DNA from: Nannocystis bainbridge
Lineage (GTDB): Bacteria; Myxococcota_A; Polyangia; Nannocystales; Nannocystaceae
DNA: 64,000 nt
Direction: 5' to 3'
Assembly: GCF_028368995.1 (NCBI RefSeq)
Contig: NZ_JAQNDL010000001.1
Location: forward strand, 2,976,001 to 3,040,000
Positions 20,148-58,719 of this stretch are shown here, piece after piece (position 1 is the first letter of the stretch; every line of letters begins with the position of its first letter). The position numbers and the translations under genes were made by a program. Below the pieces are notes generated by a model that was given only the letters and a program-made list of their open reading frames with translations, did not search any database and was not told the DNA's origin.

Positions 20148-22175
20148 TCACTTCGCGGGCACCTTGGCCGGCTTCTTCGCCGCCGGCTTCTTGCCCTTCT
20201 TCTTGCCGCCCGCCGGCACCACCACCACCGAGCCGTCTTCGGGCTCGGCGCCGAGAGTCGGATCCTGGTTGAACAGCTTGAGGGCCGCGTCGCGCAGGGT
20301 GGTGTTGCCGCCGGACGCGGCGGGCGCGGTGTAGCCGAGCCAGGCCTGGCGCAGGACCATCTGTTCGTAGGTCGCGCCGGGGTCGAGGGCGATCTTGTAG
20401 GTCGTGGGCCCGCCGCTGGCGGCCACCGCGGTGCGCTCGATCATCCGCGCCCCGCGCTGGAGCGTCAGCTGGTGGCGCGAGTTGCCGGCCATCGCCTTGA
20501 TCTGCCGCTTGGCCTCGGCCGCGCCGCCGACCTTGAGGCCGTCGATCGCCAGCAGCACGTCGCCGTTGGCCAGCCCGGCCTTGTCGCCGGCCCCGCCCTG
20601 GCGCACCAGCTCGATCGTCGCGCCCTTGTCGGCCTGCTCGGCGAACACCAGCTCGAGGTCCCCACCTGTCTCTCGGACCATGTCCAGCTTGTAGCCGGCC
20701 TGGCGCAGGTGCTTGCCGTACTCGATCTCGTCGAAGCCGTGCACGTACTTGCGGAACAGCTCGCTGACCTCGGCGCCCGCGGCCCCGCCGGCGGCGACGA
20801 AGGTGGCCTCGAGCTCGGTCGGCGAGATGCCGGCGCCGGTGTTCTTCCACCGGCCGTAGAGCTCGCGCATGACCGAGTCGAGGCTGCGCTGGCCGCCGGA
20901 GATCCGCCGGAGCTCGATGTCGAGGGCGAGGGCGATCAGCATGCCCTTGTTGTAGTAATCGACGTAGCTGTTGCCGCCGTCTTCGGGCCGCAGCCACGCC
21001 TCCCACGAGGCCTGCTCGACCGTCATCTGCTTGCGCCCCGGCGACTCCTGCAGGCGCCGGATCTGCTCGCCGAGCGCCTCCATCGACTCGGACTCGCTCG
21101 CCAGCCCGGCGCGGGCCAGGATCACCCACGCGTAGTAGCTGGTGAAGCCCTCGGAGAACCACAGCATGCTGGTGTGGACCTCGCGCTCGTAGGCGAACGG
21201 CCCGAGCACGCCGGGGCGGATGCGCTTGACGTTCCACGCGTGGAAGAACTCGTGGGCGGCCGTGCTGAGGAACTTGCGGTAGGCCGCCGGGTCGCCGAAG
21301 ATCCACGGCTCGAGCCCGATCACGGTGCTGTTGCGGTGCTCGAGCCCGGCGCGACCGCCCGGGCGGAGGTGCAGGATGTACGTGTAGTCGGTGAACGGCA
21401 CGCCCTCGTCGCCGCCGAAGATCGCGTAGGTCGCGTCGGCGATCTTCGTCAGGTCGGCGGCCAGCTTCTTGTCGCTGTAGTTGCCGATGCCCTGCAGGGC
21501 CACGTGGAACTGGACCTTGCCGGCCTTGAAGTTGATGGTGTCGACCTTGCCGACGTGGACCGGCGCGTCGACCAGCATGTCGTAGTCGTTGGCCTTGAAC
21601 GCCTTGCCGCTGCCGCCCGCGCGCGGCAGCGCACACACCACCTGCGCCCCCGGCAGGCCCTCGATGCGCAGCTCGATCGGGCGCTCCTTGTGGCCGACGG
21701 CGTAGGGGAACAGATACACGCCGTTGAAGAAGCCGAACTCGTCGTCGAGGAAGGCCCCGGCGATCCCGCTGTAGGCGCCGCGATAGACGCGGTAGCGCAG
21801 CTTGAACGGCTGACCCCCGTGGGTCACGCGCCAGGTGATCTCGTCGACCTTGACGACCGGGATCGGCTTGCCGCCGGCGGTCTCGGCGACCATGCCGCGG
21901 ATGTTGCGGTGGGCCTCGGTGACGCGGTAGGCGCCCGGGTTCCAGCGCGGCAGCTGCAGGTCGGTGACCTCGCCCGGCAGGTCGGAGAAGCTCAGCTCGA
22001 CCTGGAATTCGTGGCGATGCGGGTCGTCCATCGCGACCTTGTAGACGAACGCATCGAGCTTCTTGGCCGCCGCCTCGGCGCCCGGAGCCGCCGACGTGGT
22101 CGCCGGGTCGACCAGCAAGAGACCGAGCGCCAGCGCCGCGGCGAACCGGCGCTTCGAGAGCAAGCGAGACAGCAT
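20148..22175 (-). CDS. M61 glycyl aminopeptidase family metallopeptidase with PDZ domain
   Basis: LPRWNPGAY, GLEHRNST, HEFFHAWNVKRIRP, WFSEGFTSYY, YYNKG and PDZ AGLANGDVLLAIDG. Confidence 0.92.
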   Translation of the reverse strand: MLSRLLSKRRFAAALALGLLLVDPATTSAAPGAEAAAKKLDAFVYKVAMDDPHRHEFQVELSFSDLPGEVTDLQLPRWNPGAYRVTEAHRNIRGMVAETAGGKPIPVVKVDEITWRVTHGGQPFKLRYRVYRGAYSGIAGAFLDDEFGFFNGVYLFPYAVGHKERPIELRIEGLPGAQVVCALPRAGGSGKAFKANDYDMLVDAPVHVGKVDTINFKAGKVQFHVALQGIGNYSDKKLAADLTKIADATYAIFGGDEGVPFTDYTYILHLRPGGRAGLEHRNSTVIGLEPWIFGDPAAYRKFLSTAAHEFFHAWNVKRIRPGVLGPFAYEREVHTSMLWFSEGFTSYYAWVILARAGLASESESMEALGEQIRRLQESPGRKQMTVEQASWEAWLRPEDGGNSYVDYYNKGMLIALALDIELRRISGGQRSLDSVMRELYGRWKNTGAGISPTELEATFVAAGGAAGAEVSELFRKYVHGFDEIEYGKHLRQAGYKLDMVRETGGDLELVFAEQADKGATIELVRQGGAGDKAGLANGDVLLAIDGLKVGGAAEAKRQIKAMAGNSRHQLTLQRGARMIERTAVAASGGPTTYKIALDPGATYEQMVLRQAWLGYTAPAASGGNTTLRDAALKLFNQDPTLGAEPEDGSVVVVPAGGKKKGKKPAAKKPAKVPAK

Positions 22176-22268: not shown

Positions 22269-24764
22269 TTGTCCCTCGCACCGCCAGCGCGCCCGCCCGC
22301 GCGACCCGCCGCCGGCCCCGGTCCGTGGCCGCTCGGGCTGGCCGCCGCCGCGGTCGCGGGCCTGGTGCTGATCCCCGGCCACGGCGCGCACGGCCTGTGG
22401 TCGCAGGGCGAGATCGGGGCGCTGCAGCGCGCCCAGGCGGCCCTCGGCGCCGCGCTCTCGGGCCTGGAGCGCAGCCCGTGGCTGCCCGACGCCCTGCGGA
22501 CGCAGGCGCTCGCGCTCGTCGGCGACCCGGCGGCGATCCGCCTGCCCGGCGCGCTCGCCACCTGTGCCCTCGTGGCGCTGGCCGCCGGCCTGGCTCGCGC
22601 GCTCGGCCTGTCGGCGACGATCTCCGCGCTGGCCGGCATGTTCGCCCTGGCCTTCCCGCTGTCGCTCACTCAGGGCCGCCTGGCCCTCGGCGATCCGATC
22701 GGCGAGCTGGCCGGGACCGTCGCCGCGCTGCTGCTCGCCGCCGCCCTGGCCAGCCCGCGCCTCGCCCGCGGCCTGGGCCTCGCCGCAGCCGGCAGCCTGG
22801 CCCTGGCCCTCGCCGCCACCGCCTCGGGCCTGTGGCTCGGCGTGGTCCTCCCGCTGGCCGCCGCCGCGCTGTGGGGACCTGTCCCCGCGAGCATGTCCTC
22901 AGGAACATCTCTAAAAAGGCATGTTCCAGGGGACATGTCCGATGGATTATGCTCTGAAGCACATGCCCATTCAGACATGTCCGCCCGGACATCTCCGGAT
23001 GACGTCACCGCGAACCTGACCGCCGCGCCGTCCGGCCTCGGCACCGCGAGCCTGGCCGCCGCGCCGTCAGCTTCGTCCGGCCTCGGCGACGCTCCCGCGA
23101 GCCTGGCTGTCGGACCGGCGGACGTCTCGTCCCGCCGCGGCCCGGCCCCCGCCTCACCTGTCTCTTCGGACCTGTCCTCGCGGCCATCTCGATTGCAGAC
23201 CCCGCTGCGGCTGGTGCTGGTCGCCGGCGCCGTCGCGGCCGCCGGCGTGGCCGGCTGGCTCGCCTACAATCAGGGCGACGGCTACATCCCCGCGCTCGGG
23301 GCCGCCAAGGACATGGTCCTGCGCGAGCGGCCGCACGTGCGGGGCTTCCACGCCGCGCTCGAGGACTGCGGCTACCAGCTGTTCCCGTGGCTGCCGCTGG
23401 TGCTGCTCGGGCTGCTGCAGCCGGGGCGGGCCCGCTGGCCCGCGCTGTGGTTCGCCGTCGGCCTGGCGCTGGCCAGCGCCTCGTCGCTGCTGTACGGCGC
23501 GCGCGCGGTGCCGCTGACGGTGCCCGCCGCCGTGCTCGCCGCCGCCGCCTTCGCCCGCCTCGTCTCCCCGCGCACGCCCGCGGCCGCGCGTCGGCTGGCC
23601 CTCGTGCTCGCCCTCGCCGGCTGCTGGATCTTCGCCAAGGACGCCCGCCGCACCCCCAGCCGGATCGGCGCCGCCCTGGCGCCCACGCGCGGCGAGCACA
23701 ACTACCCCGCCGCCGACCTCGGCGCCGCCGACCTGCTGTCCGGCCTCGCCGGCGGGGCCGCCGTCGCGCTTGTCCTTTCGGCCATGTTCTCCGCGCCAGG
23801 TCCCGGAGGACAGGGCTCTTCGCGCATGTCGAGAAAGCTCTACGCGCTGCGGACCCGCCTGCCCGGCTGGCTGCCGGCCGCGATCATGGTCGCCTGCCTC
23901 GGCCGGCAGGCGTGGAGCTACGGCCGCGACCTGCTGCCGCGGACCAGCGAGCAGTTCTCGCTGCTGCGCCCGCTGACGCGCTGGGCCGCGTGGACCGAGG
24001 CTGGCGCGCTGCCGCCGACCCTCGGCGTCCACCGCGTGTCCGACCCCGGCCTCGAGCTCTACGGCCCGGCCCCGGACCTGCGGGTCCCGCTGGCCACCCG
24101 CGAGGCGCTGGCCAACGTGCTGCGCCAGCCGGCCCCGGCGGCCGCGCTGATCCGCACCAGCGAGCTGGCGGCGCTGCACCAGACCGCCCGCGCCGGCGGC
24201 TTCTCGTTGCACGTGCTCGACGCCAGCAACCGCGACGTCCTCCTGATCGCCAACACCCTGCCGCCGGGCGCGGACGACATGAACCCGATCCGCCGGGTCC
24301 TGTTCGACGAGCCGCCGGCGCTGGCCCACCCGACGCTGCTGCGCTTCGACGACTTCGTCGAGGTGATCGCGTGGGAGTGGGACGAGCCGGTGGTGCGCGG
24401 CCGCGAGGTCGAGCTGCGCGTGGTCCTGCGCCCGCTCAAGGCCATGCCGAGCGGCAGCAAGATCACCGTGCGGCTGCAGCAGGGCCGGCTGTCGCGCGTC
24501 AACCCGATGCCGCACGACCTGGTCGAGAACATCTACCCCCCGCAGTACTGGCGCCCCGGCGACTACCTGCTGCACCGCTTCCGCGTCCACGTGCCGACGC
24601 TCGAGATCGTGCCCGGCCCGCACGAGGTGGTGATCGGCATGCGCCGGACCGAGTCCAGCAACTACAAGATCACCGTCCCCGAGGGCGAGACCGGCGAGCA
24701 CGGCGTGCGCGTGTTCGCCGGCCCGCACGAGTTCGCCGTCGTCGGCGAGCTGCAGGTCTGGTAG
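22269..24764 (+). CDS. Polytopic membrane protein, ArnT/PMT-like glycosyltransferase fold likely, with an in-frame repeat insert
   Basis: Many hydrophobic helices, GLWSQGE, RLPGAL, FPWLP and a soluble C-terminal domain (YWRPGDY). TTG start estimated. Confidence 0.7.
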   Translation: MSLAPPARPPARPAAGPGPWPLGLAAAAVAGLVLIPGHGAHGLWSQGEIGALQRAQAALGAALSGLERSPWLPDALRTQALALVGDPAAIRLPGALATCALVALAAGLARALGLSATISALAGMFALAFPLSLTQGRLALGDPIGELAGTVAALLLAAALASPRLARGLGLAAAGSLALALAATASGLWLGVVLPLAAAALWGPVPASMSSGTSLKRHVPGDMSDGLCSEAHAHSDMSARTSPDDVTANLTAAPSGLGTASLAAAPSASSGLGDAPASLAVGPADVSSRRGPAPASPVSSDLSSRPSRLQTPLRLVLVAGAVAAAGVAGWLAYNQGDGYIPALGAAKDMVLRERPHVRGFHAALEDCGYQLFPWLPLVLLGLLQPGRARWPALWFAVGLALASASSLLYGARAVPLTVPAAVLAAAAFARLVSPRTPAAARRLALVLALAGCWIFAKDARRTPSRIGAALAPTRGEHNYPAADLGAADLLSGLAGGAAVALVLSAMFSAPGPGGQGSSRMSRKLYALRTRLPGWLPAAIMVACLGRQAWSYGRDLLPRTSEQFSLLRPLTRWAAWTEAGALPPTLGVHRVSDPGLELYGPAPDLRVPLATREALANVLRQPAPAAALIRTSELAALHQTARAGGFSLHVLDASNRDVLLIANTLPPGADDMNPIRRVLFDEPPALAHPTLLRFDDFVEVIAWEWDEPVVRGREVELRVVLRPLKAMPSGSKITVRLQQGRLSRVNPMPHDLVENIYPPQYWRPGDYLLHRFRVHVPTLEIVPGPHEVVIGMRRTESSNYKITVPEGETGEHGVRVFAGPHEFAVVGELQVW
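22880..23005. repeat. Eight to nine phased 14-bp TGTC-N6-GACA-type units inside a CDS
   Basis: TGTC-CCCGCG-AGCA|TGTC-CTCAGG-AACA|TCTC-TAAAAA-GGCA|TGTT-CCAGGG-GACA|TGTC-CGATGG-ATTA|TGCT-CTGAAG-CACA|TGCC-CATTCA-GACA|TGTC-CGCCCG-GACA|TCTC-CGGATG-ACGT. Confidence 0.9.
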
Positions 24765-33901: not shown

Positions 33902-34696
33902 ATGTCCGTCCGTATCGAGCGCAGCGGCCCCGTCACCACCGTCATCCTCGCCCGGCCCGAGCGGCGCAACGCGGTCGACGGGCCGACCGCCGCCGCGCTC
34001 GAGCGGGCCTTCCGTGAGTTCGACGCCGACCCCGACGCCCGCGTCGCCGTGCTGTGGGGCGAGGGCGGGCATTTCTGCGGCGGCGCCGACCTCAAGGCCC
34101 TGGCCAGCGGCGACGCCAGCAACCAGCTCCACCTCGACGCCCCGGCCGACGCGCTCGGCCGGCCGGCGCCGATGGGTCCCACGCGGCTGCTGCTGCGCAA
34201 GCCGGTGATCGCCGCCGTCAGCGGCTACGCGGTCGCGGGCGGCCTCGAGCTGGCGCTGTGGTGCGACCTGCGGGTCGCCGACGAGGACGCCGTGTTCGGC
34301 GTGTTCTGCCGCCGCTTCGGCGTGCCGCTGATCGACGGCGGCACCGTGCGTCTGCCCCGGCTCGTCGGCATGGGCCGCGCGCTCGACCTCATCCTCACCG
34401 GTCGCCCGGTCGCCGCCGCCGAGGCCCTGGCCATCGGCCTCGTCAATCGCCTCGTCCCGCCCGGCCAGGCCCGCGCCGCCGCCGAGGCCCTGGCCGCCGA
34501 GATCGCCGCCTTCCCGCAGGCGTGCCTGCAGGCCGACCGCCGCTCCGCACATGTCCAGTGGGACATGTCCCTCGAGCAAGCCCTGCTCGCCGAGGCCCAC
34601 GGCGGCGCCGACGTGATCGCCCGCGAATCGATCGCCGGGGCCCAGCGCTTCGCCGCCGGCGAAGGCCGCCACGGCACGGGCTCGACGACAAAATAA
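33902..34696 (+). CDS. Enoyl-CoA hydratase/crotonase family protein
   Basis: RPERRNAVD, FCGGADLK, AGGLELALWCDLRVA and GVPLIDGG. Confidence 0.93.
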   Translation: MSVRIERSGPVTTVILARPERRNAVDGPTAAALERAFREFDADPDARVAVLWGEGGHFCGGADLKALASGDASNQLHLDAPADALGRPAPMGPTRLLLRKPVIAAVSGYAVAGGLELALWCDLRVADEDAVFGVFCRRFGVPLIDGGTVRLPRLVGMGRALDLILTGRPVAAAEALAIGLVNRLVPPGQARAAAEALAAEIAAFPQACLQADRRSAHVQWDMSLEQALLAEAHGGADVIARESIAGAQRFAAGEGRHGTGSTTK

Positions 34697-34977
34697 CCGG
34701 CCGAAGTCGCGACCGCAGCGCTCGCCTCCCGCAGGCTCCCGTCTCTGCGCCGGACCCGAAGATCATCGCCCACGATCGCGGCTCTTCGCCGGCGTGCTCC
34801 CTGCCTCCTGGCCCCGAGATCACGACCTCGCCGCCTGGCTCGCCTGACTCCGGCCTGCGCCTCGCGTCCTCCGACCTCGCTGCTGCCGAGCCCGCTCTGC
34901 TCACCGAACCGGGTTCTCCCGCCACGATGCCCGCGCCGTTGCCCGCGACGCGCGATCGCCCCTATAGTCGCGCCCGC

Positions 34978-35514
34978 ATGCAACGCCGCGAATTCGTCCT
35001 CGGGTCCCCTGCCGTCCTCGCCACCACCGCCTGCAGCAGCGCGCCCGACGAGCTGCCGCCGCCCCCGGCCAAGACGCCCGGCAAGCCCACCGCCCCGCCG
35101 GCGGCCCCGACCGCCGCGCCCACCGCGGTCGCCGACCCGCACGCCGGCCACGGCGACCACGGCGACCACGCTGGCCATCACGCTGGCGACGACGCCACCC
35201 TCACCGTCGCCACCGACTGCCTCAAGACCGGCGAGGTCTGCGTCCAGCACTGCTTCGTCCTGCTCGGCCAGGGCGACACCAGCATGGCCGCCTGCGCCCG
35301 CTCGGCCCACGAGATGCTCGCTGTCACCCGCGCCCTGCTCGTGCTCGCGGCCGGCCCCTCCGAGCACCTGCCCGCCCAGGCCAAGGTCGCCCTCGCCGTC
35401 GGCGAGCGCTGCGAGGCCGAGTGCCGCAAGCACGAGGCCAAGCACCCCGCCTGTAAGGCCTGCGCCGAGGCCTGCAAGGCCGCCGTCACCCGCTACCGCA
35501 CCCTCGCCGGTTGA
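34978..35514 (+). CDS. Csp1-like four-helix-bundle copper storage protein, Tat/lipoprotein signal
   Basis: MQRREF...TTAC, His-rich linker and C..TGEVC..HC...C...C...CRKH...H..CKACAEAC. Confidence 0.83.
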   Translation: MQRREFVLGSPAVLATTACSSAPDELPPPPAKTPGKPTAPPAAPTAAPTAVADPHAGHGDHGDHAGHHAGDDATLTVATDCLKTGEVCVQHCFVLLGQGDTSMAACARSAHEMLAVTRALLVLAAGPSEHLPAQAKVALAVGERCEAECRKHEAKHPACKACAEACKAAVTRYRTLAG

Positions 35515-35546
35515 GCCCGCGGCCGCGGCCGCGATACATTGCGAGC

Positions 35547-36605
35547 GTGGTTCACCGCGCCGTCGTCACGCTCGCCCTGGTCCTCGCCCTGTCCGCCTGC
35601 AGCGACGCCGGTGGTGGCTCCACCGGCAACCTGACCTCGGGGACAGGTACGAGCGGCACCACCGACGAGGCGACCACCACCACCGGCGGCACCACCTCGA
35701 CCACCACCGACGCGCCGACCAGCGAGCCCGCCACCACCGGCGAGCCCGACCCCACCACCTCGACCACCACGACCTCGACCACCGGCGTGATCGAGTGTGA
35801 CGGCGGCGGGCTCGGTCCTGGCGATCACACCTTGATGCTCGACCACGACGGCGCCGCGCGGACCGCCCTCGTCCACATCCCGCCCGGTTACGACCAACTC
35901 GCGCCGGTGCCCGTGGTCCTCAACTTCCACGGCTTCACCCAGGACAGCGACGGCCAGCTCGCGCTCTCGGCCATGAACCCCGTCGCCGACGCCCATGATT
36001 TCGTCGTCGTCTATCCCCAGGGCCTCGACTACTCGTGGAACGCCGGCGAGTGCTGCGGCCTGTCGGTCGTCAACGAAGTCGACGACATCGGCTTCGTCCG
36101 CGCCCTCGTCGCTCGCCTGCAGGACGAGCTGTGCGTCGACCCCCGGCGCGTCTACGCCACCGGCATGTCGAACGGCGGCTACCTCTCCCACCGGCTCGCC
36201 TGCGAGGCCACCGACCTGATCGCCGCCATCGCCCCCGTCTCTGCCACCATCGTCATCGACCCCTGCGAGCCTGCTCGCCCGATCCCCGTCATGATGTTCA
36301 ACGGCACCACCGACATCCTCGTGCCTTATGGCGGCGGCCTCTATCAGAGCGCCCCGCAATCGTTCGCCGACTGGGCCGGCCACAATCACTGCAATGGCGC
36401 CCCCGCGGTCACCCAGCAGGCCGGCGGCGCCACCTGCGAGGCCTACGACGATTGCGACGACGACGTCACCGTCACCCTCTGCACCCTCGAGGGCATGGGC
36501 CACTGCTGGCCTGGCAACCCGGAGTGCCCGTTCGGCACGCCCAGCGTCGACCTCGACGCAAGCGCGCTCATCTGGGAGTTCTTCAGCGGCTACGCGCTGC
36601 CGTGA
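35547..36605 (+). CDS. PHB-depolymerase/LpqC-type esterase lipoprotein
   Basis: LSAC lipobox, VLNFHG, WNAGECCG, DDIGF, GMSNGG and GHCWPG. Confidence 0.9.
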   Translation: MVHRAVVTLALVLALSACSDAGGGSTGNLTSGTGTSGTTDEATTTTGGTTSTTTDAPTSEPATTGEPDPTTSTTTTSTTGVIECDGGGLGPGDHTLMLDHDGAARTALVHIPPGYDQLAPVPVVLNFHGFTQDSDGQLALSAMNPVADAHDFVVVYPQGLDYSWNAGECCGLSVVNEVDDIGFVRALVARLQDELCVDPRRVYATGMSNGGYLSHRLACEATDLIAAIAPVSATIVIDPCEPARPIPVMMFNGTTDILVPYGGGLYQSAPQSFADWAGHNHCNGAPAVTQQAGGATCEAYDDCDDDVTVTLCTLEGMGHCWPGNPECPFGTPSVDLDASALIWEFFSGYALP

Positions 36606-37100
36606 TCAGCCGCGGCGGCACAGCTGATCGACCAGGCGCAGCAGCGTCGGCACGCGGTGCGGCCCGTGCATCGCCCTCACGTGCGCGGCGGCCTCGTCGT
36701 CGTCCATACCGATGGCCGTGACGAACAGGGGCCGGCGGCTGTCGCCGCGCAGCACCTCGCGGGCTGGCGCGCCGCGGAACGGATTCTTGGCCACCCCGAC
36801 CACCGGCGTCGTCTCGCCGAGCGCGTGATAGAGGTGCGCCCCGAGGCCCGGCCGGTCGGGCCCGAGCCACACGTGGCCATCGACCACCACCACCGAGGGA
36901 GGCGCCGGGCAGCGGGCCAGCGCCGCCAGCAGGCACGGCAGCTCACGCGTATAAAACGCCCCGGGCGCGTACTCGGCCGCGGCCGGGCTCGTCACCGTAT
37001 AGCTCTGAAGGACATGTTCTTCGGACCATGTCTCGAAGAGCACACAGGCAGTCACCGCCGCGTCCGGGCGGTAGTCGACGTCGAGCGCGGCGATCGCCAC
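36606..37100 (-). CDS. nfi: Endonuclease V family protein
   Basis: ALDVDY, YAPGAFYTRELP, VVVDGHVWL, GVAK and RVPTLLRLVD. Confidence 0.85.
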   Translation of the reverse strand: MAIAALDVDYRPDAAVTACVLFETWSEEHVLQSYTVTSPAAAEYAPGAFYTRELPCLLAALARCPAPPSVVVVDGHVWLGPDRPGLGAHLYHALGETTPVVGVAKNPFRGAPAREVLRGDSRRPLFVTAIGMDDDEAAAHVRAMHGPHRVPTLLRLVDQLCRRG

Positions 37101-37355
37101 CCCTCGTCGATACCAGCTCGGGCCCGCGTGCGCGAGGGCCAAGCCGCAGCGTCTCAGGCGCGATCTTGCGCCACCCGTCGCCCGCCCGGTCCGCGCCGAC
37201 GCTCCGGCGAGCGGTGCGACCCGCCCGGCTGGACGGCGAGCAGGGCGACCCCGGCGAGCGCGCTCGACTTTCATCAAACATGACCTCCGGGACATGTCCC
37301 GAAGCACCTGCTCGAGTGATTGTCGCCGACGCGCGGACAAGATACTTCCTTCGGG

Positions 37356-39326
37356 GTGACGACGACGTCGAAGCCACGCAGCCCCTCGAGCCGACCCTCC
37401 GCCGAGCGGCCCGTGAAGACCCCGGCCAAGGCCGCAAAGACCAAGTCGACCGCCGCGAAGAGCAAGCCGACCGCCGCCGCGAAACCGGCGAGCCGCGCTG
37501 CGACTACTGCCGCTGCGAAGCCCGCGAATCGCACTCCGACCACCGCGAAACCCGCGAGCCGCACCCCGACGAAACCCAAGCCGACCGCCGCGGCCAGGCC
37601 CGCGAGCCGCACCGCGACGGAGAAGCCCGCGAGCCGCAAGGCCGTCGCCACGCTGACCCCGCGAGCGCTGCGCTCGCCTGCCCAGGCAACGCCGGTCCCC
37701 GTGCCCTCGCGTCACGTTGAGTTCGCCGCCGGGGCGCCCGTGTCGGCCTGGGCCGACGCCAAACGGGCGGTCACGATCGCCGGCGACGGCCCGCCGCAAC
37801 CCGTCGCCCTCAAGCTCCCGAAGGGCGCCGAGATCACCGGCCTGGCCCTCGCCGACGACGGCGCCCGCCTCGGCGTGCGCGTGACCACGCCCGGCCAGGG
37901 CTCGCACATCGTCGTGATCGCGGGAGACGGCACCAGCGTCGCCCACGACGGCTGCGTGGCCGTCGGCTTCGGCGACGCCGGCGAGCTCCACCTCGCGCGC
38001 CCGAAAGAGCTCGTGCACCTGTCGCGCACCGGCGAGCCGATCGGCCAGCCGCGCCTGACCGGCGGCTATCTGGCGGCCCAGCTCCGCAGCGACGGCGCGG
38101 CCTGCTTCCCCAGCTACGGCCAGGTCCGCGTGGTCCTGCCCGACGGCCGCGTGCATGCCCTCGAAGCCGGCACGGGCGCGGTCGCGGCGACGCGCATGCA
38201 CCCCACGCTGCCGCTGGTCGCCGGCCAGTGGGTCGACGAGGGCGTGTTCCGCGTGTTCGGATGGGACGACGGCCGCGTGCTGCTCGAGGTCGCCGCGCCG
38301 TGGTGTCGCGGCGTGCTGAGCTTCGCGTTCGCCCCCGACGGCGGGGCGGTCGCGGCGATCGGCCCCGGCGCGCACGTCTACTCCCTGACGACCGGCGCCG
38401 AGGTGCTGACCTTGCCGGGCGGCCGCGAGATGACCGGCGGCTTCGTCGACGCGACCACGCTGCAAATCGGCGCCGGCCTGCGCACGACCCACCCGCTCGG
38501 CGCCCCGGCGACGATCCAGGCGCCGGTGTTCTCGCTGGCGGTCGCGGCGGACGGGCGGCTCGCGCTCGAGCGCGACGGCGGCGTCGAGCTGCGATCGCTC
38601 ACCACCGGCGAGACGGCGGCCACGCTGCCGGTGACGGGCGCCCAGCGCATCGCGTTCGCCCGCGGCGGCGCGATCGTGATCGTCGCCACCGGCGAGAGCA
38701 CGCTCGCGCTCGACGCGACGACCGGCGCCGAGCTGTTCCGCCGCCCGCACCTCGGCGAGCTGGGGGCGGATCTCGCCGTCGCGCCCGACGGCGCGAGCTT
38801 CGTCGTCGCCGACGCGACGCTGACGCGCGTCGACCTCGACGGCTGGCACCTCACCATCCTCGCCGCCGCCGACACGGGCTTCGCGGCGGTCGCCTGGAGC
38901 GGGGCGACGATCACCGCCCGCCGCGGCGAGGCCATCGTCGCCGTCGACGCAAACTCGGGCGCGCTCACAGCCGAGATGACCGTGAGCCCGGGCGCCGGCC
39001 CGATCGTCGCCACCGCCGTGTTCGGCGGCTCCTTGCTCGCCGCCACCGACGCGGCCCTGTTCGCCGCCACACTCGCGGGCCCGTCACTGCGCGGCAAGCT
39101 GGTCCAGGCCGATCTCGCGGGCCCGGTGGTGGCGAGCCGCGACGGCCAGCGCCTGTTCGTCGCCGTCACCGTCGCCGACGCGAACGAGGCGCGGATCCTC
39201 GACCCTTCCTTCGCGCCGCTCGCCCGCTTCCTCGTCGGCGACGTCACGGCCGCCGCCTTCGACGCCGACAGCACCCGGCTGGTCTTCAGCTGCGACGGTC
39301 AGCTCGAGCTCGTCGATGTTCCCTGA
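37356..39326 (+). CDS. WD40/beta-propeller-like protein with K/A/P/T-rich histone-like N-terminus
   Basis: AAKPASR repeats followed by beta-rich repeats (FAPDG, VAPDG, SRDG). Start estimated. Confidence 0.7.
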   Translation: MTTTSKPRSPSSRPSAERPVKTPAKAAKTKSTAAKSKPTAAAKPASRAATTAAAKPANRTPTTAKPASRTPTKPKPTAAARPASRTATEKPASRKAVATLTPRALRSPAQATPVPVPSRHVEFAAGAPVSAWADAKRAVTIAGDGPPQPVALKLPKGAEITGLALADDGARLGVRVTTPGQGSHIVVIAGDGTSVAHDGCVAVGFGDAGELHLARPKELVHLSRTGEPIGQPRLTGGYLAAQLRSDGAACFPSYGQVRVVLPDGRVHALEAGTGAVAATRMHPTLPLVAGQWVDEGVFRVFGWDDGRVLLEVAAPWCRGVLSFAFAPDGGAVAAIGPGAHVYSLTTGAEVLTLPGGREMTGGFVDATTLQIGAGLRTTHPLGAPATIQAPVFSLAVAADGRLALERDGGVELRSLTTGETAATLPVTGAQRIAFARGGAIVIVATGESTLALDATTGAELFRRPHLGELGADLAVAPDGASFVVADATLTRVDLDGWHLTILAAADTGFAAVAWSGATITARRGEAIVAVDANSGALTAEMTVSPGAGPIVATAVFGGSLLAATDAALFAATLAGPSLRGKLVQADLAGPVVASRDGQRLFVAVTVADANEARILDPSFAPLARFLVGDVTAAAFDADSTRLVFSCDGQLELVDVP

Positions 39327-39393
39327 CCCTCATGACATGTCCATGAGAGCATGTTCTCTACGACATGTTCTATTCGACATGTCTTGAAGAAAA
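39324..39393. repeat. Five phased TGTC-N6-GACA-type units filling a convergent gap
   Basis: TGAC-CCTCAT-GACA|TGTC-CATGAG-AGCA|TGTT-CTCTAC-GACA|TGTT-CTATTC-GACA|TGTC-TTGAAG-AAAA; the first TGA is the upstream stop codon. Confidence 0.88.
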
Positions 39394-39398
39394 CATCA

Positions 39399-40334
39399 TC
39401 AAGGCTGCGCGCGCCCGGGCTCGACCACGTGGACCCGCCGGCCGACCAGGTGCTCCCCCTTATTGAATCCGCGGATCCGGTAGACCGAGCGCACCTTCGG
39501 GTTGTGCGCCCACGCCTGGAAATCGGCGCCCTGCTGCAGGATGTACTCGAACCCCGCGGGCCGGCCCGGCAGCGTGCGCAGCACCTGCCCGCCCGCCAGC
39601 GGCAGCCCCTGCACGTTCGCCCGGAACTCCGGCGTGTACAAAAAGTATTGCTCGATGTTCGACAGGTACAGCAGCCCCACGCGCAGCCCCGCGGCCCGCA
39701 GCGCCTCGCCGACCGCGTGTACCGTGCCCGCGCGGGTGAAGTCGCCGCGCAGCGCGATCACCCGGCCCGCGCGCACCAGCCCCGCCACCCGCTCGTACAG
39801 GCGCGGGTCCGACAGCAGCCATGCGCGGCCCTGGCTCGCCATGTGGCGCTCGAGCTCGGCCAGGCGGCGGGCCACCGCCGGGCGCGCCTCCGTGAAGATC
39901 TCGGCCAGCGCCTCGCCGCCGGCCGCCTCGACCAGCGCCCGCGCCTCCGCCTCGCCTGCGGGCGTCCACAGCCGCGAGAACTCGGCCGGCCCTGGCGCCG
40001 CCGCGAAGAAGGCGGCGTAGATCCGGTGCAGCGCCACGATCGCCGGGTCGAGATCGATCAACACCAGCGCGCGCGCGTCGGCCCAGGCCGCGAGGATGTA
40101 GCCGGGATCGGCCGCCACCGCCACGACCACCTCGCCGACGTCCTGCACCGTGTCGGCGACGAGGTCGAGGTCGCGCTCGTTCGAGGCGAAGTAGTGCAGC
40201 CCGTTCGTCAGCGGCCCGGTGTCGCGGTCGGCCGCCAGCGCTCGCGCGGCCGCGGCGAACGCGTCGAAGTCGGCGCGCGCCGGCGCGGGCAACAGCGCGA
40301 GGACGAACAGGACCGACGATACGAAGCGACGCAC
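39399..40334 (-). CDS. Secreted hypothetical protein
   Basis: Signal peptide (MRRFVSSVLFVLALLPAPARA), YFASNE and LYLSNIEQY motifs. Confidence 0.75.
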   Translation of the reverse strand: MRRFVSSVLFVLALLPAPARADFDAFAAAARALAADRDTGPLTNGLHYFASNERDLDLVADTVQDVGEVVVAVAADPGYILAAWADARALVLIDLDPAIVALHRIYAAFFAAAPGPAEFSRLWTPAGEAEARALVEAAGGEALAEIFTEARPAVARRLAELERHMASQGRAWLLSDPRLYERVAGLVRAGRVIALRGDFTRAGTVHAVGEALRAAGLRVGLLYLSNIEQYFLYTPEFRANVQGLPLAGGQVLRTLPGRPAGFEYILQQGADFQAWAHNPKVRSVYRIRGFNKGEHLVGRRVHVVEPGRAQP

Positions 40335-40371
40335 CGCGGCCTTACGCCCCGGCGCTCGCCGTCATTCCGGC

Positions 40372-40644
40372 TCAGCCGTGGAAGCCGGAGCCGTCCCAGT
40401 GGTGCGCCGGATCGGGGTAGAACAGCGCGCCGCCGGTGTCGCGGTACTCCTGGCAGATCAGCACCAGCCACCCGCCGGGCACGCGGGTTCGATACGTCTC
40501 GATGTTGTTGCTCGCCGTGAGGCGCTCCCACACCACCTGGGGGCGCTTCATCCCGCGCTCGGTCCAGTAGGTCTCGCTGTTGGGGTCGCCTTCGGACTCG
40601 TAGCCGCCCTCGTCATCGCCCCGCATCATGTTGCTGATCGCCAT
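40372..40644 (-). CDS. Small hypothetical protein
   Basis: RTRVPGGWLV...FYPDPAHHWDG; coding-like codon bias. Confidence 0.65.
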   Translation of the reverse strand: MAISNMMRGDDEGGYESEGDPNSETYWTERGMKRPQVVWERLTASNNIETYRTRVPGGWLVLICQEYRDTGGALFYPDPAHHWDGSGFHG

Positions 40645-40736
40645 GGCAAGGGCGATGGTGACATAGCCCCGGGGACGCGACCAGGGGGCGCCCACCATTG
40701 TCGCGTGCGCCCGGCTTTGGCATCTTCGAGGGCCCC

Positions 40737-43700
40737 GTGCACAAGGATGCTCCGGCGGACGCCCCCGATGGCGACTCCTTCGCCGCGCAGTTCGCCGCGG
40801 CCGAGCCTCCGCGCCCGCGCGAGGCGCCCGCCGAGCACGCGCGCGCCCGCCTGGCGGCCCAGTTGTTCGGCGCCGCCTCGCCGGTCCAGCCCCTCGGGCC
40901 CTACGCCGTGCTCCGCGAGCTCGGCCACGGCGCGATGGGCGTGGTGCACGAGGGTCGCGGCCCCGGCGACCAGCAGGTCGCGCTCAAGACCCTGCGCCGG
41001 CCCGACCCCGCGGCGATCGCCCGGCTCAAGCGAGAGTTCCGCAACGTCGTCGACGTCGGCCACGCCAACCTCGTCGCCGTCTACGAGCTCGCCCTCGATC
41101 CGGCGCGCGGCGAGTGGTACATCGCCATGGAATATGTCCCCGGGGACAGCTGGCTCGCGCACCTGCGCCCCGCCGGCGGTCGCGCCCCCGAGGCCGTCAT
41201 CCGCGCTGCGCTCGCCCAGCTGTGCTCCGGCGTCTACGCGCTGCACCGCGCCGGCCTGCTGCACCGCGACCTCAAGCCGTCGAACGTGCTCGTCAGCGGC
41301 GAGGGTCGGCTCAAGATCGTCGATTTCGGGCTGGCGCAGCTGGCCGACGGCGGCTACGAGGGCCTGGCCGGGACCGCCGGCTACCTCGCACCCGAGCTGC
41401 TGGCCGGCGCCCCGCCGTCGCCCGCCAGCGACTGGTTCGCCGTCGGCGTGATGCTCTACGAGGCCCTGTCCGGCCGGCGCCCGCGCGTGCCGCCGGGGCC
41501 GACCCCGATCGACGGCGCCCCGGCCGACCTGCTCGCGCTCTGCCGCGACCTCCTGGCCGAGAACCCGGCCGCGCGCCCGAGCGGCCGCGACCTGCTGCTG
41601 CGCCTCGGCCTCGACGCCCCGCCGACGCCCTCGCCGGTGTTCGTCGGCCGCGCCGGCGAGCTCGCCACCTGCGTCCGCGCCCTCGAACGCCCCCCGGCGC
41701 TGCTCCTCCTGGTCGGCCCCTCCGGCGCCGGCAAGTCGGCCCTGCTGGCCCACCTCGCCGCCGACCTCCGCGACCGCCGCGGCGCCCTCGTCCTCCACGG
41801 CCGCTGCTACGCCGGCGAGTCCGTCCCCTACAAAGCGCTCGACGGCGTGGTCGAGGCGCTCGCCAAGCACCTCGAGACATGTCCTGAAAAACATGTCCTA
41901 TCCACCATGCCCGAAGAGTCAGCCGATCTGCGGCGCGTGTTCCCGGCGCTGCAGCGGGCGGTCGGGGCCACCGGCGGCGCCCTGGCGGCCGGCGCCGTCC
42001 CGCGCGAGACCCGGCGGCGCGCCGTCGCGGCGCTGCGGCGGCTCCTGACCGAGCTGGCGCGCGCGCGGCCGATCGTGCTGGCGATCGACGACCTCCAGTG
42101 GGGCGACGCCGACTCCGCGCGGCTGCTCGGCGAGCTGCTGGCCCCGCCCGACTCGCCGGCGATCGTCGTCGCCGCCAGCGTGCGCAGCGACGTGCGCCCC
42201 ACCTCCGCCTTCTTCGCCGAGCTCGACGCCGCCCCGCTCGCCTGCCCGATCCACGAGGTCGCGCTCGCCCCGCTGGGGCCCGCCGACGCCGAGCAGCTGG
42301 CCGCCACCATCCTGGCCGAAAGGCCAGGTCGCGGCGACGACCCCGGCCTGCGCCAGCGCCTGGCCGCCGCGATCGCCCGCGAGTCGCAGGGCAGCCCGCT
42401 GTTCATCGAGGCCATCGCCCAGCGCCGGGGCGACGCCGCCGCTGACGTCGCTACCTCGCTCGACGGCGCCCTGCAGGCCGAGGTCGCCGCGCTCGAGCCT
42501 GGCGAGCGGCACGCGCTCGAGCGCCTGGCCGTCGCCGGTCGGCCGCTGCGCCGCGACCTCGCGCTGCGGCAGGGCCCCGGCGCCGCCGCCCGCGTGCTCG
42601 ACGGCGCCGCATTGGCGGTCCTCGGCGCGCGCCGGCTGGTCCGCCCGAGCGGCGAGGGCGACAGCGTCGAGACCTACCACGACCGCGTGCGCGAGGTCGT
42701 GCTGCTCCGCCTCGGCGCCGCCGAGCGGCGGGCCCACCACCGCGTCCTCGCCCTCGCCCTCGCCGCCGCCCGCGACCCCGACCCTGACGAGCTGGTGCTC
42801 CATTTCCACGGCGCCGACGAGCGCGAGCTGGCCTGCGCCTGGGCCCTGCGCGCCGCCGAGCGGGCCGCCGCCGCCCTCGCGTTCGCCCGGGCCGCCGCCC
42901 TCTACGAGAAGGCCCTGTCCTGGGGGACATATCCCTCCGAACATGTCCTCAAGTACACTATCGCCCGCGCCGAGGCGCTCGTGCACGCCGGTCGCTGCGC
43001 CGAGGCGGCCCCCGTCTACCTCACCGCCGCCGCGCTGGCCCCGACCCGTTTGCAGGAGCTCGAGCTGCGCGGCCGCGCCGTCGAGCACTACCTCGTCTCG
43101 GGCCGCGTCGACGCCGGCCTGCGCGTGCTCGGCCCGCTGGCCCACGAGCTCGGCCTGCCGTTCCCGGCCTCCACCGCCGGCACCGTCCTGCGCCTCCTCA
43201 CCGAGCTCGCGCGCCTCGCCCTCGCCCGCCGCCGGGCCCCGCGCGAGCCGGTCGCCGCCGCCGACGTGCCCGCCGAGCTGCGCCTGCGCATCGACCTCTG
43301 CTGGTCCGCCGGCAAGGGCCTCGGCTTCATCGACCCCATCCGCGCCGCCGCGATCTCGGCCCAGGGCCTGCGCCTCGCCCTCGCCAGCGGCGAGCCGCGG
43401 CGGATCGCCCGGGCCGCCGCCTACCTCACCATCGTCGACATCAACGCCCCCGACCCGCGCCGGGCCAGCGCCGCCGCCCGCGAGCTGGCCCTCGCCCGCG
43501 GCCTCGCCACGCGCCTGTCCGATCCTCACCTCACCGGCCTCACCACCATCCTCACCGGCGTCGCCGCCCTCAACAACGGCCAGTGGCAGCGCGCCCTCGC
43601 CGGCGTCGAGGCCGGCGCCGACCTCCTGCGCGCCCGCTGCGTCGGCGTCCACTGGGAGCGGGCCATCGCCCACGCCATGGCGATGCACGCCCTCCTCATG

Positions 43701-44408
43701 CTCGGCGATTTCGCCGGCCTGCGCGCCCGCGCCGAGACCTGGCAGCACGAGGCCGAGGACATCGGCGACCGCTTCGCCCTCGTCGTCGCCATCCTCTACA
43801 CCGCCCACGCCGCCCTGGCCGCCGGCGAGCCCGAGCGCGCCCGCGCGGCTGTCCGCAAGGCCCTGTCCTTGTGGACATACGACGGCTTCTCGTTCCAGCA
43901 CTGGATCGCGCTCGGGATCGAGGTCGGCTGCGACCTCCACGACGGCCGCGGCCGCGACGCCTGGGCCCGGGTCGAGCGGGCCTGGCCGGCGCTGGTGCGC
44001 TCGCAGCTGATGCGCATGCAGATCCCCCGCATCGACGCCCGCCGCCTGCGCGCCTGCGCGGCCCTGGCCGCCGCGCGGGCCGGCCAGCCCCACCTGGTGC
44101 GCTTCGCCGCCGCCGACGCCGACGCCCTAGCCCGCGAGCGCATCGAGCTGGCCCACGCCAGCGAAGACCTCATCCGCTCCCAGCTCGCGGCCCTCGACGG
44201 GCGCCCCGCCGACGCCCTGCTGCGACGCGCCGCCGACCGCTTCGGCGCCGGCCACATGCCGGCCCTCGCCGCGGCCGTGCGCCACGGCGAGGCTCGCCTC
44301 GCCGGCCGCGACACTTTTGATGCCGAGCTCGCGCTGGGTCGCTGCGAGATCCGCGACCCGGCCCGCTGGGCCGCGACGGTCGCACCTGCCCTCTACGACA
44401 TGTTCTGA
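40737..44408 (+). CDS. Ser/Thr kinase fused to a STAND-like AAA ATPase and helical repeats
   Basis: LGHGAMGVV, VALK, HRDLKPSN, DFGLA, FVGRAGEL, GPSGAGKS, IDDLQWGD and GSPLFIE. Confidence 0.9.
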   Translation: MHKDAPADAPDGDSFAAQFAAAEPPRPREAPAEHARARLAAQLFGAASPVQPLGPYAVLRELGHGAMGVVHEGRGPGDQQVALKTLRRPDPAAIARLKREFRNVVDVGHANLVAVYELALDPARGEWYIAMEYVPGDSWLAHLRPAGGRAPEAVIRAALAQLCSGVYALHRAGLLHRDLKPSNVLVSGEGRLKIVDFGLAQLADGGYEGLAGTAGYLAPELLAGAPPSPASDWFAVGVMLYEALSGRRPRVPPGPTPIDGAPADLLALCRDLLAENPAARPSGRDLLLRLGLDAPPTPSPVFVGRAGELATCVRALERPPALLLLVGPSGAGKSALLAHLAADLRDRRGALVLHGRCYAGESVPYKALDGVVEALAKHLETCPEKHVLSTMPEESADLRRVFPALQRAVGATGGALAAGAVPRETRRRAVAALRRLLTELARARPIVLAIDDLQWGDADSARLLGELLAPPDSPAIVVAASVRSDVRPTSAFFAELDAAPLACPIHEVALAPLGPADAEQLAATILAERPGRGDDPGLRQRLAAAIARESQGSPLFIEAIAQRRGDAAADVATSLDGALQAEVAALEPGERHALERLAVAGRPLRRDLALRQGPGAAARVLDGAALAVLGARRLVRPSGEGDSVETYHDRVREVVLLRLGAAERRAHHRVLALALAAARDPDPDELVLHFHGADERELACAWALRAAERAAAALAFARAAALYEKALSWGTYPSEHVLKYTIARAEALVHAGRCAEAAPVYLTAAALAPTRLQELELRGRAVEHYLVSGRVDAGLRVLGPLAHELGLPFPASTAGTVLRLLTELARLALARRRAPREPVAAADVPAELRLRIDLCWSAGKGLGFIDPIRAAAISAQGLRLALASGEPRRIARAAAYLTIVDINAPDPRRASAAARELALARGLATRLSDPHLTGLTTILTGVAALNNGQWQRALAGVEAGADLLRARCVGVHWERAIAHAMAMHALLMLGDFAGLRARAETWQHEAEDIGDRFALVVAILYTAHAALAAGEPERARAAVRKALSLWTYDGFSFQHWIALGIEVGCDLHDGRGRDAWARVERAWPALVRSQLMRMQIPRIDARRLRACAALAAARAGQPHLVRFAAADADALARERIELAHASEDLIRSQLAALDGRPADALLRRAADRFGAGHMPALAAAVRHGEARLAGRDTFDAELALGRCEIRDPARWAATVAPALYDMF

Positions 44409-44456
44409 AGAACATTTCTTCAGAGACATGTCTACTTGAACATGTCTCGAAGTATC
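44387..44456. repeat. Five phased TGTC-N6-GACA-type units overlapping the kinase stop codon
   Basis: TGCC-CTCTAC-GACA|TGTT-CTGAAG-AACA|TTTC-TTCAGA-GACA|TGTC-TACTTG-AACA|TGTC-TCGAAG-TATC. Confidence 0.88.
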
Positions 44457-57537: not shown

Positions 57538-58719
57538 TCACTTCTCGGCGATCGTGACGAGCCCGGTGTCGACGTAGCGCTGCTGCGCCTCGGCGCCGGT
57601 CAGGTAGGTGTCGTAGCCGGGAGCGTCGCGCAGCCATCGCCCGAAGTAGGCGACCACGTAGGCGCGCGCGAGGTCGTTGACGACCGCGTTGGCGAGGGTC
57701 GGCTGCTGGCAGAACGAGCAGGTGATCCCACACGAGGCGACGTCGTCGAGGAAGCTCATGTGATTGGCGCCGTTGACGGTCACCTGCAGGGCCGGGGCGT
57801 TGGCCTCGGCGTAGAAGGTCGTGAAGTTCTCGGCCGCCGGGGCGCAGGCCATGAAGCCGGCGGTGTCGAGGGTCTCGCCGAGGAAGCCGAGCGGGATGGC
57901 GATCGGCAGCATCGCGCTGGCGTCGGGGCACGCCTGCATGTTCGGGCACATGTTGGCGCCGTCGACGGGATCGAGGGTGAGCGAGGCCTTGACGCGGGCG
58001 TCGTACATGGCAGCGAGCACGGAGATCTTGCCGCCGAGAGAGTGCCCGGTGGTGCCGACGTTGTTGAGGTCGGAGATGTCCCCGAGGACAGGATGCTCGC
58101 CGGCCCAGTCGAGCGCGGCCAGCACCTGCTTGGCGTTGGCGACGTGGTCGACGGTGCCGAAGATGTAGCCGGCGTGGTCGACGTTGAGGACCACGTAGCC
58201 GTGCGACGCGAGCCGCGTGGCGTAGCCGGTGTACTGCGTCGGCGGCAGGTTGAAGCCGTGGGCGATCGTCACCACCGGGTACGGTCCGGCCTCGGGCCCC
58301 GACGTCGGGTAGTGCGCGGTGACGCCGATCATCTCACCGTCGACGTCGATCTCGCCCGCGAGCTCGTCGAACTGCCACGGCCCGTCCTGGTCCGGATCGT
58401 GGACCTCGCCGTCCGGCTCGCCAGTGGTGCCGTCGGTCGTGGTCGAACCAGTCGTATCGGGACCGGTCGTGGCCGCGGTCGTCGAGGTCGGTCCGCTCTC
58501 GGTGGTCGGCCCGTCGGTCGTCGTCGTCGTCGTCGTCGTGCCACTCGTCCCGGTCGGGCTCGTCGTCGCAGTGGTCGGCTCGTCCCCGGTGGTGCTGCCG
58601 GTACCGACCCCGGTGCTCGTGCCGGTGCTCGAACCAGGGTCGGAGTCCGTGCCCGACGACGTCCCGCCGCCGTTGCACGCGATTGTGAGGACAAGGAGAG
58701 TGAGGACGGACCGCTGCAT
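57538..58719 (-). CDS. Alpha/beta hydrolase lipoprotein (chlorophyllase/cutinase-like)
   Basis: TIAC lipobox, Thr linker, AHGF, LASHGYVV, GHSLGG, LDPVD and ANHMSFLD. Confidence 0.88.
   Translation of the reverse strand: MQRSVLTLLVLTIACNGGGTSSGTDSDPGSSTGTSTGVGTGSTTGDEPTTATTSPTGTSGTTTTTTTTDGPTTESGPTSTTAATTGPDTTGSTTTDGTTGEPDGEVHDPDQDGPWQFDELAGEIDVDGEMIGVTAHYPTSGPEAGPYPVVTIAHGFNLPPTQYTGYATRLASHGYVVLNVDHAGYIFGTVDHVANAKQVLAALDWAGEHPVLGDISDLNNVGTTGHSLGGKISVLAAMYDARVKASLTLDPVDGANMCPNMQACPDASAMLPIAIPLGFLGETLDTAGFMACAPAAENFTTFYAEANAPALQVTVNGANHMSFLDDVASCGITCSFCQQPTLANAVVNDLARAYVVAYFGRWLRDAPGYDTYLTGAEAQQRYVDTGLVTIAEK

Follow-up and report, generated by a model that had tools for sequence, protein, structure and literature searches.

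Can a DNA signal scattered over a chromosome rewrite the proteins in whose genes it falls? The question is raised by a stretch of 64,000 nucleotides from Nannocystis bainbridge (contig NZ_JAQNDL010000001.1, positions 2,976,001 to 3,040,000; hereafter the window), where copies of a short palindromic motif lie inside the genes of a crotonase, an endonuclease V (EndoV), a large kinase-ATPase and several other enzymes. An earlier note had proposed that selection or directed mutation for the DNA site overwrites codons within folded enzyme domains without any insertion, as a second code laid over the genes. We found a unit of the motif at every coordinate that it had cited, in the crotonase, EndoV, kinase-ATPase, aroE, molybdopterin enzyme, M61 peptidase, hydrolase and oxidoreductase genes, and the peptides that it had quoted are right. 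The comparisons below support the heart of the proposal, that amino acids were changed toward a DNA motif, and they correct it on where and how this happened.

The motif had been taken to be ACATGT. The basic word is rather a 14-bp palindromic unit, TGTCC-N4-GGACA; neighbouring units abut with a step of exactly 14 bp, and ACATGT is present as the junction of two units. In the source genome (G000; 11.05 Mb, GC roughly 72%) the spacing is exact, TGTC-N6-GACA having 3663 copies versus 78 with N5 and 120 with N7. The motif is also graded and degenerate: both TGTC and GACA are found in 19% of array units and TG...CA is retained in 74%, most of the information being carried by the TG, CC and GG of the unit, while single units have informative flanks that extend the full site to about 20 bp, ACM-TGTCC-N4-GGACA-KGT. 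Units were scored in bits with a weight matrix trained on G000 itself, and for this reason each count is paired with a control; arrays scoring at least 12 number 5500 in G000 versus 32 in the reversed genome. Genes (8251, 83% coding) were called with our own codon-model caller, which misses or truncates some low-complexity genes. The junction decamer GGACATGTCC, together with its tolerated transitions, fits the p53 half-site RRRCWWGYYY, which we take to be a coincidence. Searches for GACATGTC, for Nannocystis and for myxobacterial palindromes or repeats, outside which most subscription papers lay, returned no published description of the motif.

Inside genes the motif is in large excess. The 6833 gene interiors hold 1519 units of at least 14 bits, versus 73-79 when synonymous codons are shuffled with the protein fixed and 21-31 when codons are shuffled; strong pairs number 698 versus 7-8 in the control, and 902 of the 8251 genes (about one in nine) hold an internal array of at least 15. 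The 41 genes of the window contain 18 internal units of at least 12 bits versus 0-4 in 30 synonymous shuffles. The use of rare codons that the earlier note had pointed out is borne out, Thr-Cys being written ACA TGT in 4.2% of cases versus 0.16% expected and His-Val being written CAT GTC in 8.8% versus 5.1%. Coding units occur in all three frames, with GHV, DMS and TC as the respective peptides, and DMS is found 357 times versus 118 expected in G000 and 4 times versus 12 in G019, a motif-free comparison genome. The genome-wide dipeptide excess that had been predicted holds for DM alone, which separates G000 from G019 (ratios 1.03 vs 0.65), with HV (1.14 vs 1.04) and TC (1.25 vs 1.22) barely enriched and no clear excess of EHV or TCP over G019. 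In a sample of every fourth gene, 312 peptides are able to encode an 18-bit unit, and 177 of these do carry one; shuffling the residues lowers the number of such peptides to 164.

Is this excess a matter of codon choice, or have residues been exchanged? G019 is a relative of G000, a cousin and not its ancestor, and the comparison covers 157 genes from 800 kb of its 9.6 Mb, with pairs below 40% identity or 60% cover excluded. We found that 42 of 54 coding units align with G019 without a gap. The peptide differs from that of G019 at all 42 of these sites, and for only six of them could some synonymous recoding bring the G019 peptide to 12 bits; amino acids have therefore been replaced. The G019 peptides at the sites fit the motif better than random windows do (best synonymous score 7.0 versus -1.9 bits), and we show that coding sites arise where the existing peptide already partly fits. 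Because G019 is a cousin, used sites were compared with unused windows of equal coding potential: the former differ from G019 at 0.56-0.60 of residues and the latter at 0.42-0.44, used sites also lose more coding potential in G019 (p 0.01), and identical peptides are found in G019 for 0 of 33 used versus 30 of 293 unused (p 0.056). Changes at mismatched codon positions 1-2, most of them specific to G000 and given a direction by majority rule, hit the consensus base in 12/21 strong versus 39/142 weak contexts. Together these results support a change of amino acids toward the motif.

The cited sites, the genes that carry those followed most closely and one further array at a stop codon are as follows (units and arrays are given without strand).

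33902..34696, plus strand: crotonase (enoyl-CoA hydratase) gene, 264 amino acids (aa), with PF00378 (ECH_1) at aa 9-250 and with orthologues
34552..34579: two-unit array at crotonase aa 217-226 (HVQWDMSLEQ), in an ungapped alignment
36606..37100, minus strand: endonuclease V gene, 164 aa, with PF04493, relatives in the PDB and an alignment-based structure model (pLDDT 89)
37001..37042: three-unit array at EndoV aa 20-34, covering the end of strand 2, the loop 23-31 and the start of strand 3
40737..44408, plus strand: Ser/Thr kinase-AAA ATPase-helical repeat protein (Pkinase, AAA_16); the frame is open from 40698 and the start is that of our gene caller
41135..41148: single unit in the kinase domain, MEYVPGDS, reached by codon choice alone, its DNA identical in 5/5 close genomes
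41866..41921: four-unit array at kinase-ATPase aa 377-395, within the AAA domain; aligns with G004 and with paralogues without gaps
42916..42957: three-unit array at kinase-ATPase aa 727-741, in a helical region outside the Pfam matches
43850..43877: two-unit array at kinase-ATPase aa 1038-1047, outside the Pfam matches
44387..44456: five-unit array spanning the kinase-ATPase stop codon
9120..9147: two-unit array at aroE aa 150-159, in a variable, indel-rich loop ahead of a conserved WVS
9196..9237: array at aroE aa 120-133, directly ahead of the conserved LG-x-GG motif
18380..18393: single unit at molybdopterin enzyme aa 185-190 (CCT GTC CCG AAG GAC ATT), kept in 4/4 relatives
20667..20680: single weak unit (10.2 bits) in the linker that joins the M61 peptidase domain to the PDZ domain, its codons different in G003
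58077..58090: single unit at aa 210-215 of an alpha/beta hydrolase, present in G000, G005 and G010, degraded in G001 and G003
59525..59552: two-unit array at aa 273-282 of a FAD oxidoreductase, its strong unit kept in 4/4 relatives

As had been expected of them, the crotonase, EndoV and four kinase-ATPase sites align with homologues without gaps: the EndoV site is gap-free across 18 sequences, and the crotonase site across 24, of which two have a single additional residue. The alignment with G004 is gap-free at all four kinase-ATPase sites. The replaced residues can be named in several cases. Crotonase M222 occurs in 9/11 motif-bearing and 0/13 motif-free genomes (10 of which have L), and the H217-V218 pair (CAT GTC) is found only in G000. 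Position H124 of aroE is P in 8/12 motif-free homologues, EndoV V30 is P in 5/8, and in the kinase-ATPase array at 43850..43877 a P-to-T change (CCA to ACA) in G000 alone completes an arm, where G001, G003, G004, G005, G007 and G010 all have P. Residues have not changed at every cited site, the kinase unit at 41135 being silent, with MEYVPG also present in G004. On soil-metagenome contigs three of the kinase-ATPase sites recur with 0-2 differences per contig among those listed and the fourth with 6; these contigs may come from the source sample, and we infer nothing from them.

Could the peptides instead be selected for what they do in the protein, or the sites be products of chance or of assembly? 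Some observations go this way: the peptide at 41135 is ancestral, the M61 unit is weak, and sites arise where an ancestral peptide partly fits. However, the motif yields different peptides in the three frames, residues vary while arm bases stay, the same sites recur in five other assemblies and the excess is 20-fold with the protein fixed, so that we regard this explanation as refuted and hardly credible.

Where, then, do the replacements sit in the fold? The crotonase array falls inside the PF00378 match. The weak M61 site lies between the peptidase and PDZ matches, the molybdopterin enzyme site just outside the MoCoBD_2 match, and the third and fourth kinase-ATPase sites outside any Pfam match. 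Identity among motif-free homologues is lower at the site than over the whole protein in EndoV (0.23 vs 0.44) and crotonase (0.35 vs 0.67), and in aroE stands at 0.29 and 0.48 for the two sites versus 0.49 overall. For 2/4 sites G000 is farther from the motif-free homologues than these are from each other, as in the aroE array 9196..9237 (identity 0.32 to homologues, 0.48 among them). The EndoV array includes no invariant column and keeps the near-invariant W25. The changes thus sit where motif-free homologues already vary, and neither folded cores nor catalytic residues are overwritten, against what had been proposed. The observation is confirmed with this limit, that sites occupy variable loops and helix ends and not catalytic positions. 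Where residues are constrained (MEYVPG, VLG of aroE) the motif is reached through codon choice. The code overlays the genes and yields to them where positions matter.

What is then maintained, the peptide or the DNA? Among relatives at 86-91% identity, 83-96% of ungapped units keep 10 bits. With units defined in G000, six non-independent pairs of other genomes were compared at 6-40 sites each: at fourfold sites, 3-17% of arm A/T bases are different within a pair, versus 68-81% elsewhere. A second test, on 144 genes in four genomes with the context scored without the tested base, found fourfold A/T sites variable at 6/39 arm versus 75/156 other positions (p 2e-4), and first codon positions variable at 15/220 in arms and 19/128 in spacers, with a background of 7.4%. 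In four genomes the array in the AAA domain encodes CPEKHVLSTMP, CSPRHVFTLMS, CSPKHVFTCIS and CSNKHVLASIP, yet ACA TGT and CAT GTC are present each time, and in the EndoV array ACA and CAT GTC are retained in 6/6 motif-rich genomes. These data support the conclusion that the DNA, and not the peptide, is what is kept.

Such retention also bears on the directed mutation that the earlier note had considered, whereby mutation or methylation-linked repair would write the word with no selection on individual sites, as proposed for HIP1 of cyanobacteria. The motif is indeed palindromic, limited to a lineage and present in three frames, and most array units have TG...CA. However, a writing process has to face a graded, degenerate motif with both full arms in fewer than one array unit in five, and sites that are conserved across species and not replenished. 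Directed mutation is unsupported because there is no template: the spacers are diverse and the arms do not covary. We therefore consider it very improbable.

Alteration without insertion, as first claimed, holds for the 42 ungapped units, in which residues are replaced; the remaining 12 of 54 touch an indel, versus 5.7% of control windows, and include true insertions carrying arrays. In-frame insertions with arrays are found in several genes, and large arrays and tandem duplicates also occur in linkers. There are thus two modes of origin of coding sites, and we show that substitution is the commoner, the insertion or duplication of linker sequence accounting for the smaller share. One example of the second mode lies in the window, in a gene whose array-bearing linker varies in length among close relatives.

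22880..22991: eight-unit array in the length-variable linker of gene 22365-24764, insertion-type mode

This gene (plus strand) codes for a membrane protein with a weak PMT-like match. Elsewhere, proteins that from their sequence we read as MutL-like (G000:C3:937510-940483), Lhr-like (C1:2586755-2591432) and QueA-like (C1:960685-961831) have low-complexity stretches studded with the motif, the first two being among the proteins in which GHVPEDMS- and TCPSGQ-type peptides recur; the QueA-like protein has an insertion of about 45 residues relative to G009. A region missed by the gene caller (G000:C3:1094530-1098272) holds about 13 two-unit arrays at steps of 39-96 bp; it probably encodes a repetitive protein that arose by duplication of segments with the motif.

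Insertions of this kind recall two systems, the repetitive extragenic palindromic (REP) sequences and bacterial interspersed mosaic elements (BIMEs) with their RAYT transposases, and the Rickettsia palindromic elements (RPEs). The arrays here resemble these systems in clustering after stop codons and between convergent genes, and in that some are in-frame insertions or tandem duplicates. Examples of a BIME-like tandem form, two-unit arrays every 52-68 bp with similar flanks, are found at G000:C1:306353-306483 and C3:590534-590785. The reading that mobile palindromes like REP/RAYT or RPE were inserted to give the coding copies draws on the excess of indels, the array-carrying insertions, the linker duplicates and a slight spacer identity at 42 bp. 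Unlike REP/BIME-RAYT elements, the copies do not share spacers, and no Y1 transposase (PF01797) was found in G000, the genome being 90% complete; in-frame insertion adding residues, as in RPEs, applies to a minority only, since most units are ungapped and the crotonase, EndoV and four kinase-ATPase sites gap-free. The reading is refuted for most coding sites, and as a general account it has very little probability.

Outside genes the arrays have a clear preference. Of 5498 classified arrays 1947 lie inside genes, and an array is present in 825/1402 convergent, 1131/3991 tandem and 269/1527 divergent gaps, with array edges peaking within 10 bp of stop codons. The array across the kinase-ATPase stop codon listed above is of this type, and the window also offers the commoner intergenic form.

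39324..39393: five-unit array in a convergent gap

These counts and the coding comparisons show that sites accumulate by point mutation where the cost is low, first behind stops and between convergent genes and away from promoters, and then in genes, where completion proceeds by rare synonymous codons and by replacement at tolerant loop or helix-end positions, the arm bases being held thereafter. The longest array (21 units, spacers all different; G000:C3:1237890-1238183) begins at the stop of a small gene and precedes an enzyme gene. An array-free gap (at the threshold of 15) at G000:C2:2100549-2141424 corresponds to the ribosomal protein cluster, and there are 36 other gaps above 20 kb, many of lower GC. 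Identical proteins occur at the ends of C1 (~4.52-4.54 Mb) and C2 (~3.02-3.03 Mb), some in three copies, which suggests an assembly overlap or a duplicated segment.

The position at gene ends raises the possibility of a role in RNA, as hairpins that end or protect transcripts, the coding copies being a by-product or pause sites. In addition to the peak at stops, arrays in convergent gaps have spacers that are complementary between unit i and unit i+2 (1.36 versus 1.09, standard deviation (sd) 0.02), a G-U-compatible bias follows the transcript direction only within 60 bp of stops, and some 3' arrays double as RNA hairpins. However, arm sequence is fixed with little compensatory change, and much of the G-U bias tracks the G-rich replication strand. 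Coding arrays lack a transcript-strand bias (107 vs 132) and their i/i+2 signal is marginal (1.23 vs 1.15, sd 0.04); UUCG is not strand-biased (31 vs 23), U-tracts are rare (16/808), and there is no Rfam match within the window. A secondary RNA role is likely for 3'-proximal arrays, with no match to this pattern in coding arrays; as the explanation of the whole it is very improbable.

How widespread is the system? G000 has 557 copies of ACATGT-N8-ACATGT, and 4-365 copies are present in each of 10/10 same-genus genomes. Two related genera follow with 30 and 10, the 28 remaining relatives have 0-1, and in a draw of 300 genomes from the phylum the number never exceeds two. Counts of TGTC-N6-GACA form a gradient over the relatives, from 16-141 in motif-free genomes through 240-1444 to 3004-3957; 13 genomes are motif-bearing (G000-G011 and G013) and 12 members of the family are motif-free.

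Hyper-abundant signals of comparable behaviour are known. According to Findlay and Redfield (2009, PMC2817400), the uptake signal sequences of Pasteurellaceae and the DNA uptake sequences of Neisseria (USS/DUS) are not palindromic, roughly double the tripeptides that they encode and sit at poorly conserved residues. As in the motif described here, USS/DUS have thousands of lineage-specific copies with about a third in genes, originate by substitution at poorly conserved residues with raised tripeptides, double as hairpins in intergenic positions and are scarce in foreign-looking DNA (PMC2817400). Unlike them, the present motif is a gapped, degenerate palindrome with exact 14-bp tiling, and it fills inserted linkers too. 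HIP1, conserved inside genes (Xu et al. 2018, PMC5861425), is likewise a hyper-abundant palindrome conserved in all frames beyond codon preference, with a debated function (nucleoid or uptake); it is an exact 8-mer tied to methylases with a 10-90 kb periodicity (PMC5861425, PMC13756078), unlike our two-armed 14-20 bp site, which forms short phased arrays and favours gene ends. The motif works like USS/DUS and HIP1 and is a member of neither, being a gapped palindrome on a 14-bp lattice.

The likeness to USS/DUS suggests a molecular drive, in which the motif would be a self-recognition signal for uptake or recombination and better-sited fragments would be inherited more, sites building up wherever the harm is small. 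This would account for substitution origin, poorly conserved residues, raised tripeptides, hairpin doubling and gaps above 20 kb between arrays that mostly have lower GC than the genome, as well as for the near-saturation of usable coding sites, and ComEC is present. ComEC is not specific, however, being found equally in motif-free relatives (22/25 genomes); the lack of a palindrome and of a fixed lattice in USS/DUS is a further difference, and the strong avoidance of promoter sides seen in divergent versus convergent gaps fits a cytoplasmic binder at least as well. We judge this drive to be unlikely, while giving it more weight than the RNA, mutational and mobile-element accounts.

On balance we favour, by a modest preference, the interpretation that the units are putative binding sites of a two-fold symmetric protein that binds double-stranded DNA, and that the lineage was selected to carry very many of them. 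Arm covariation is nearly nil (mutual information (MI) of complementary bases at most 0.011 at the outer six pairs), the diverse spacers of adjacent units have little sequence in common, and neighbour dependence is strong at adjacent central bases alone (MI 0.29; AA/TT, GA/TC and CG favoured, TA, AC/GT and GC avoided), as in indirect readout. This combination would fit a dimer on duplex DNA better than it fits hairpins, copying from a template or the duplication of an element. The half-site core ACATGT is self-complementary, each core could serve dimers on its left and its right, and one further core 14 bp on would make another site without any cooperativity being assumed; the exact 14-bp phasing may thus result from shared self-complementary half-site cores. 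The likeliest job of such a protein would be chromosome organisation or the limiting of read-through at gene ends.

A structural precedent is offered by PadR of B. subtilis, whose operator contains ACATGT-N8-ACATG. In the crystal its dimers grip native and bridge operators that are offset by 14 bp along one continuous duplex (Park et al. 2017, PMC5728393), a lattice like that of the arrays here. Our motif has the geometry CATGT-N8-ACATG. Unlike a reader of thousands of sites at gene ends, PadR is a local repressor whose key base is an outer C (PMC5728393).

The search for the reader covered several families. Weak PadR matches look like HxlR-type and other winged helix-turn-helix proteins. In the lexA promoter (G000:C1:3164750-3164920) no sequence scores above 5.5 bits, so that a unit is absent, and there is a CGTTCAG-type box; the stretch TATACACCCGTTCAG in it is common to G001, G002, G005, G006, G008, G009 and G013 and is likely the SOS box of the family. 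BlaI and MarR families occur whether or not a genome bears the motif, and their promoters lack a clear array, the one exception being an array 197 bp upstream of a BlaI gene. Nor did 18 XRE matches, six strong CRP matches or the single TIGR04563 protein have a telling promoter array, and MrpC was set aside on account of the different spacing of the motif listed for it, TGTYN8RAC. No candidate came from small basic proteins, promoter-side arrays or a ranking by codon bias, and eight site contexts in G013 and G004 have no neighbour gene in common. A small lysine-rich protein of 138 aa with no assigned family (G000:C1:3209003-3209420) is a possible nucleoid protein.

Several of our results weigh against a binding protein under selection for many sites. 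No reader was identified among the tested families: canonical PadR (PF03551) is present in 4/10 same-genus genomes and was not found in G000 or G001, LacI is over the cut-off in 0/41 genomes, and the recognition helix of LexA is almost the same in genomes without the motif. Where intergenic arrays are lacking, coding sites do not make up for them, internal density being 0.183 per kb without and 0.184 with a flanking array in genes matched for length; distances had first hinted at such filling, and the hint was lost after this matching. Pair counts to 100 kb have no long-range period by eye, no formal test being applied. Spacer A/T bases are fairly conserved as well (3/18 vary). In a five-genome test of 47 genes, seven single-lineage replacements improve and seven worsen strong sites, and therefore no net gain is visible today. 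Finally, the divergence data do not separate selection for binding from biased uptake or recombination.

A bolder version of the same reading, which we find doubtful, would have an undescribed, sequence-specific chromosome protein of this lineage polymerise on the 14-bp lattice at thousands of places. Selection for its sites would be strong enough to recode about one tenth of genes, to replace residues of enzyme loops and to promote the in-frame expansion of linkers, as in the MutL-like and Lhr-like proteins. If true, this would be a chromatin code of bacteria laid over the genetic one, and its reader would belong to a new class.

DNA signals that shape proteins were already known from uptake sequences and HIP1, and the motif described here is an independent case with a different anatomy. 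Its copy-number gradient across relatives lets the rise of such a code be followed. The reader would be either a novel factor of the nucleoid or of termination or else a novel receptor for uptake, and the odd loop residues and linker insertions of these proteins need not reflect protein function.

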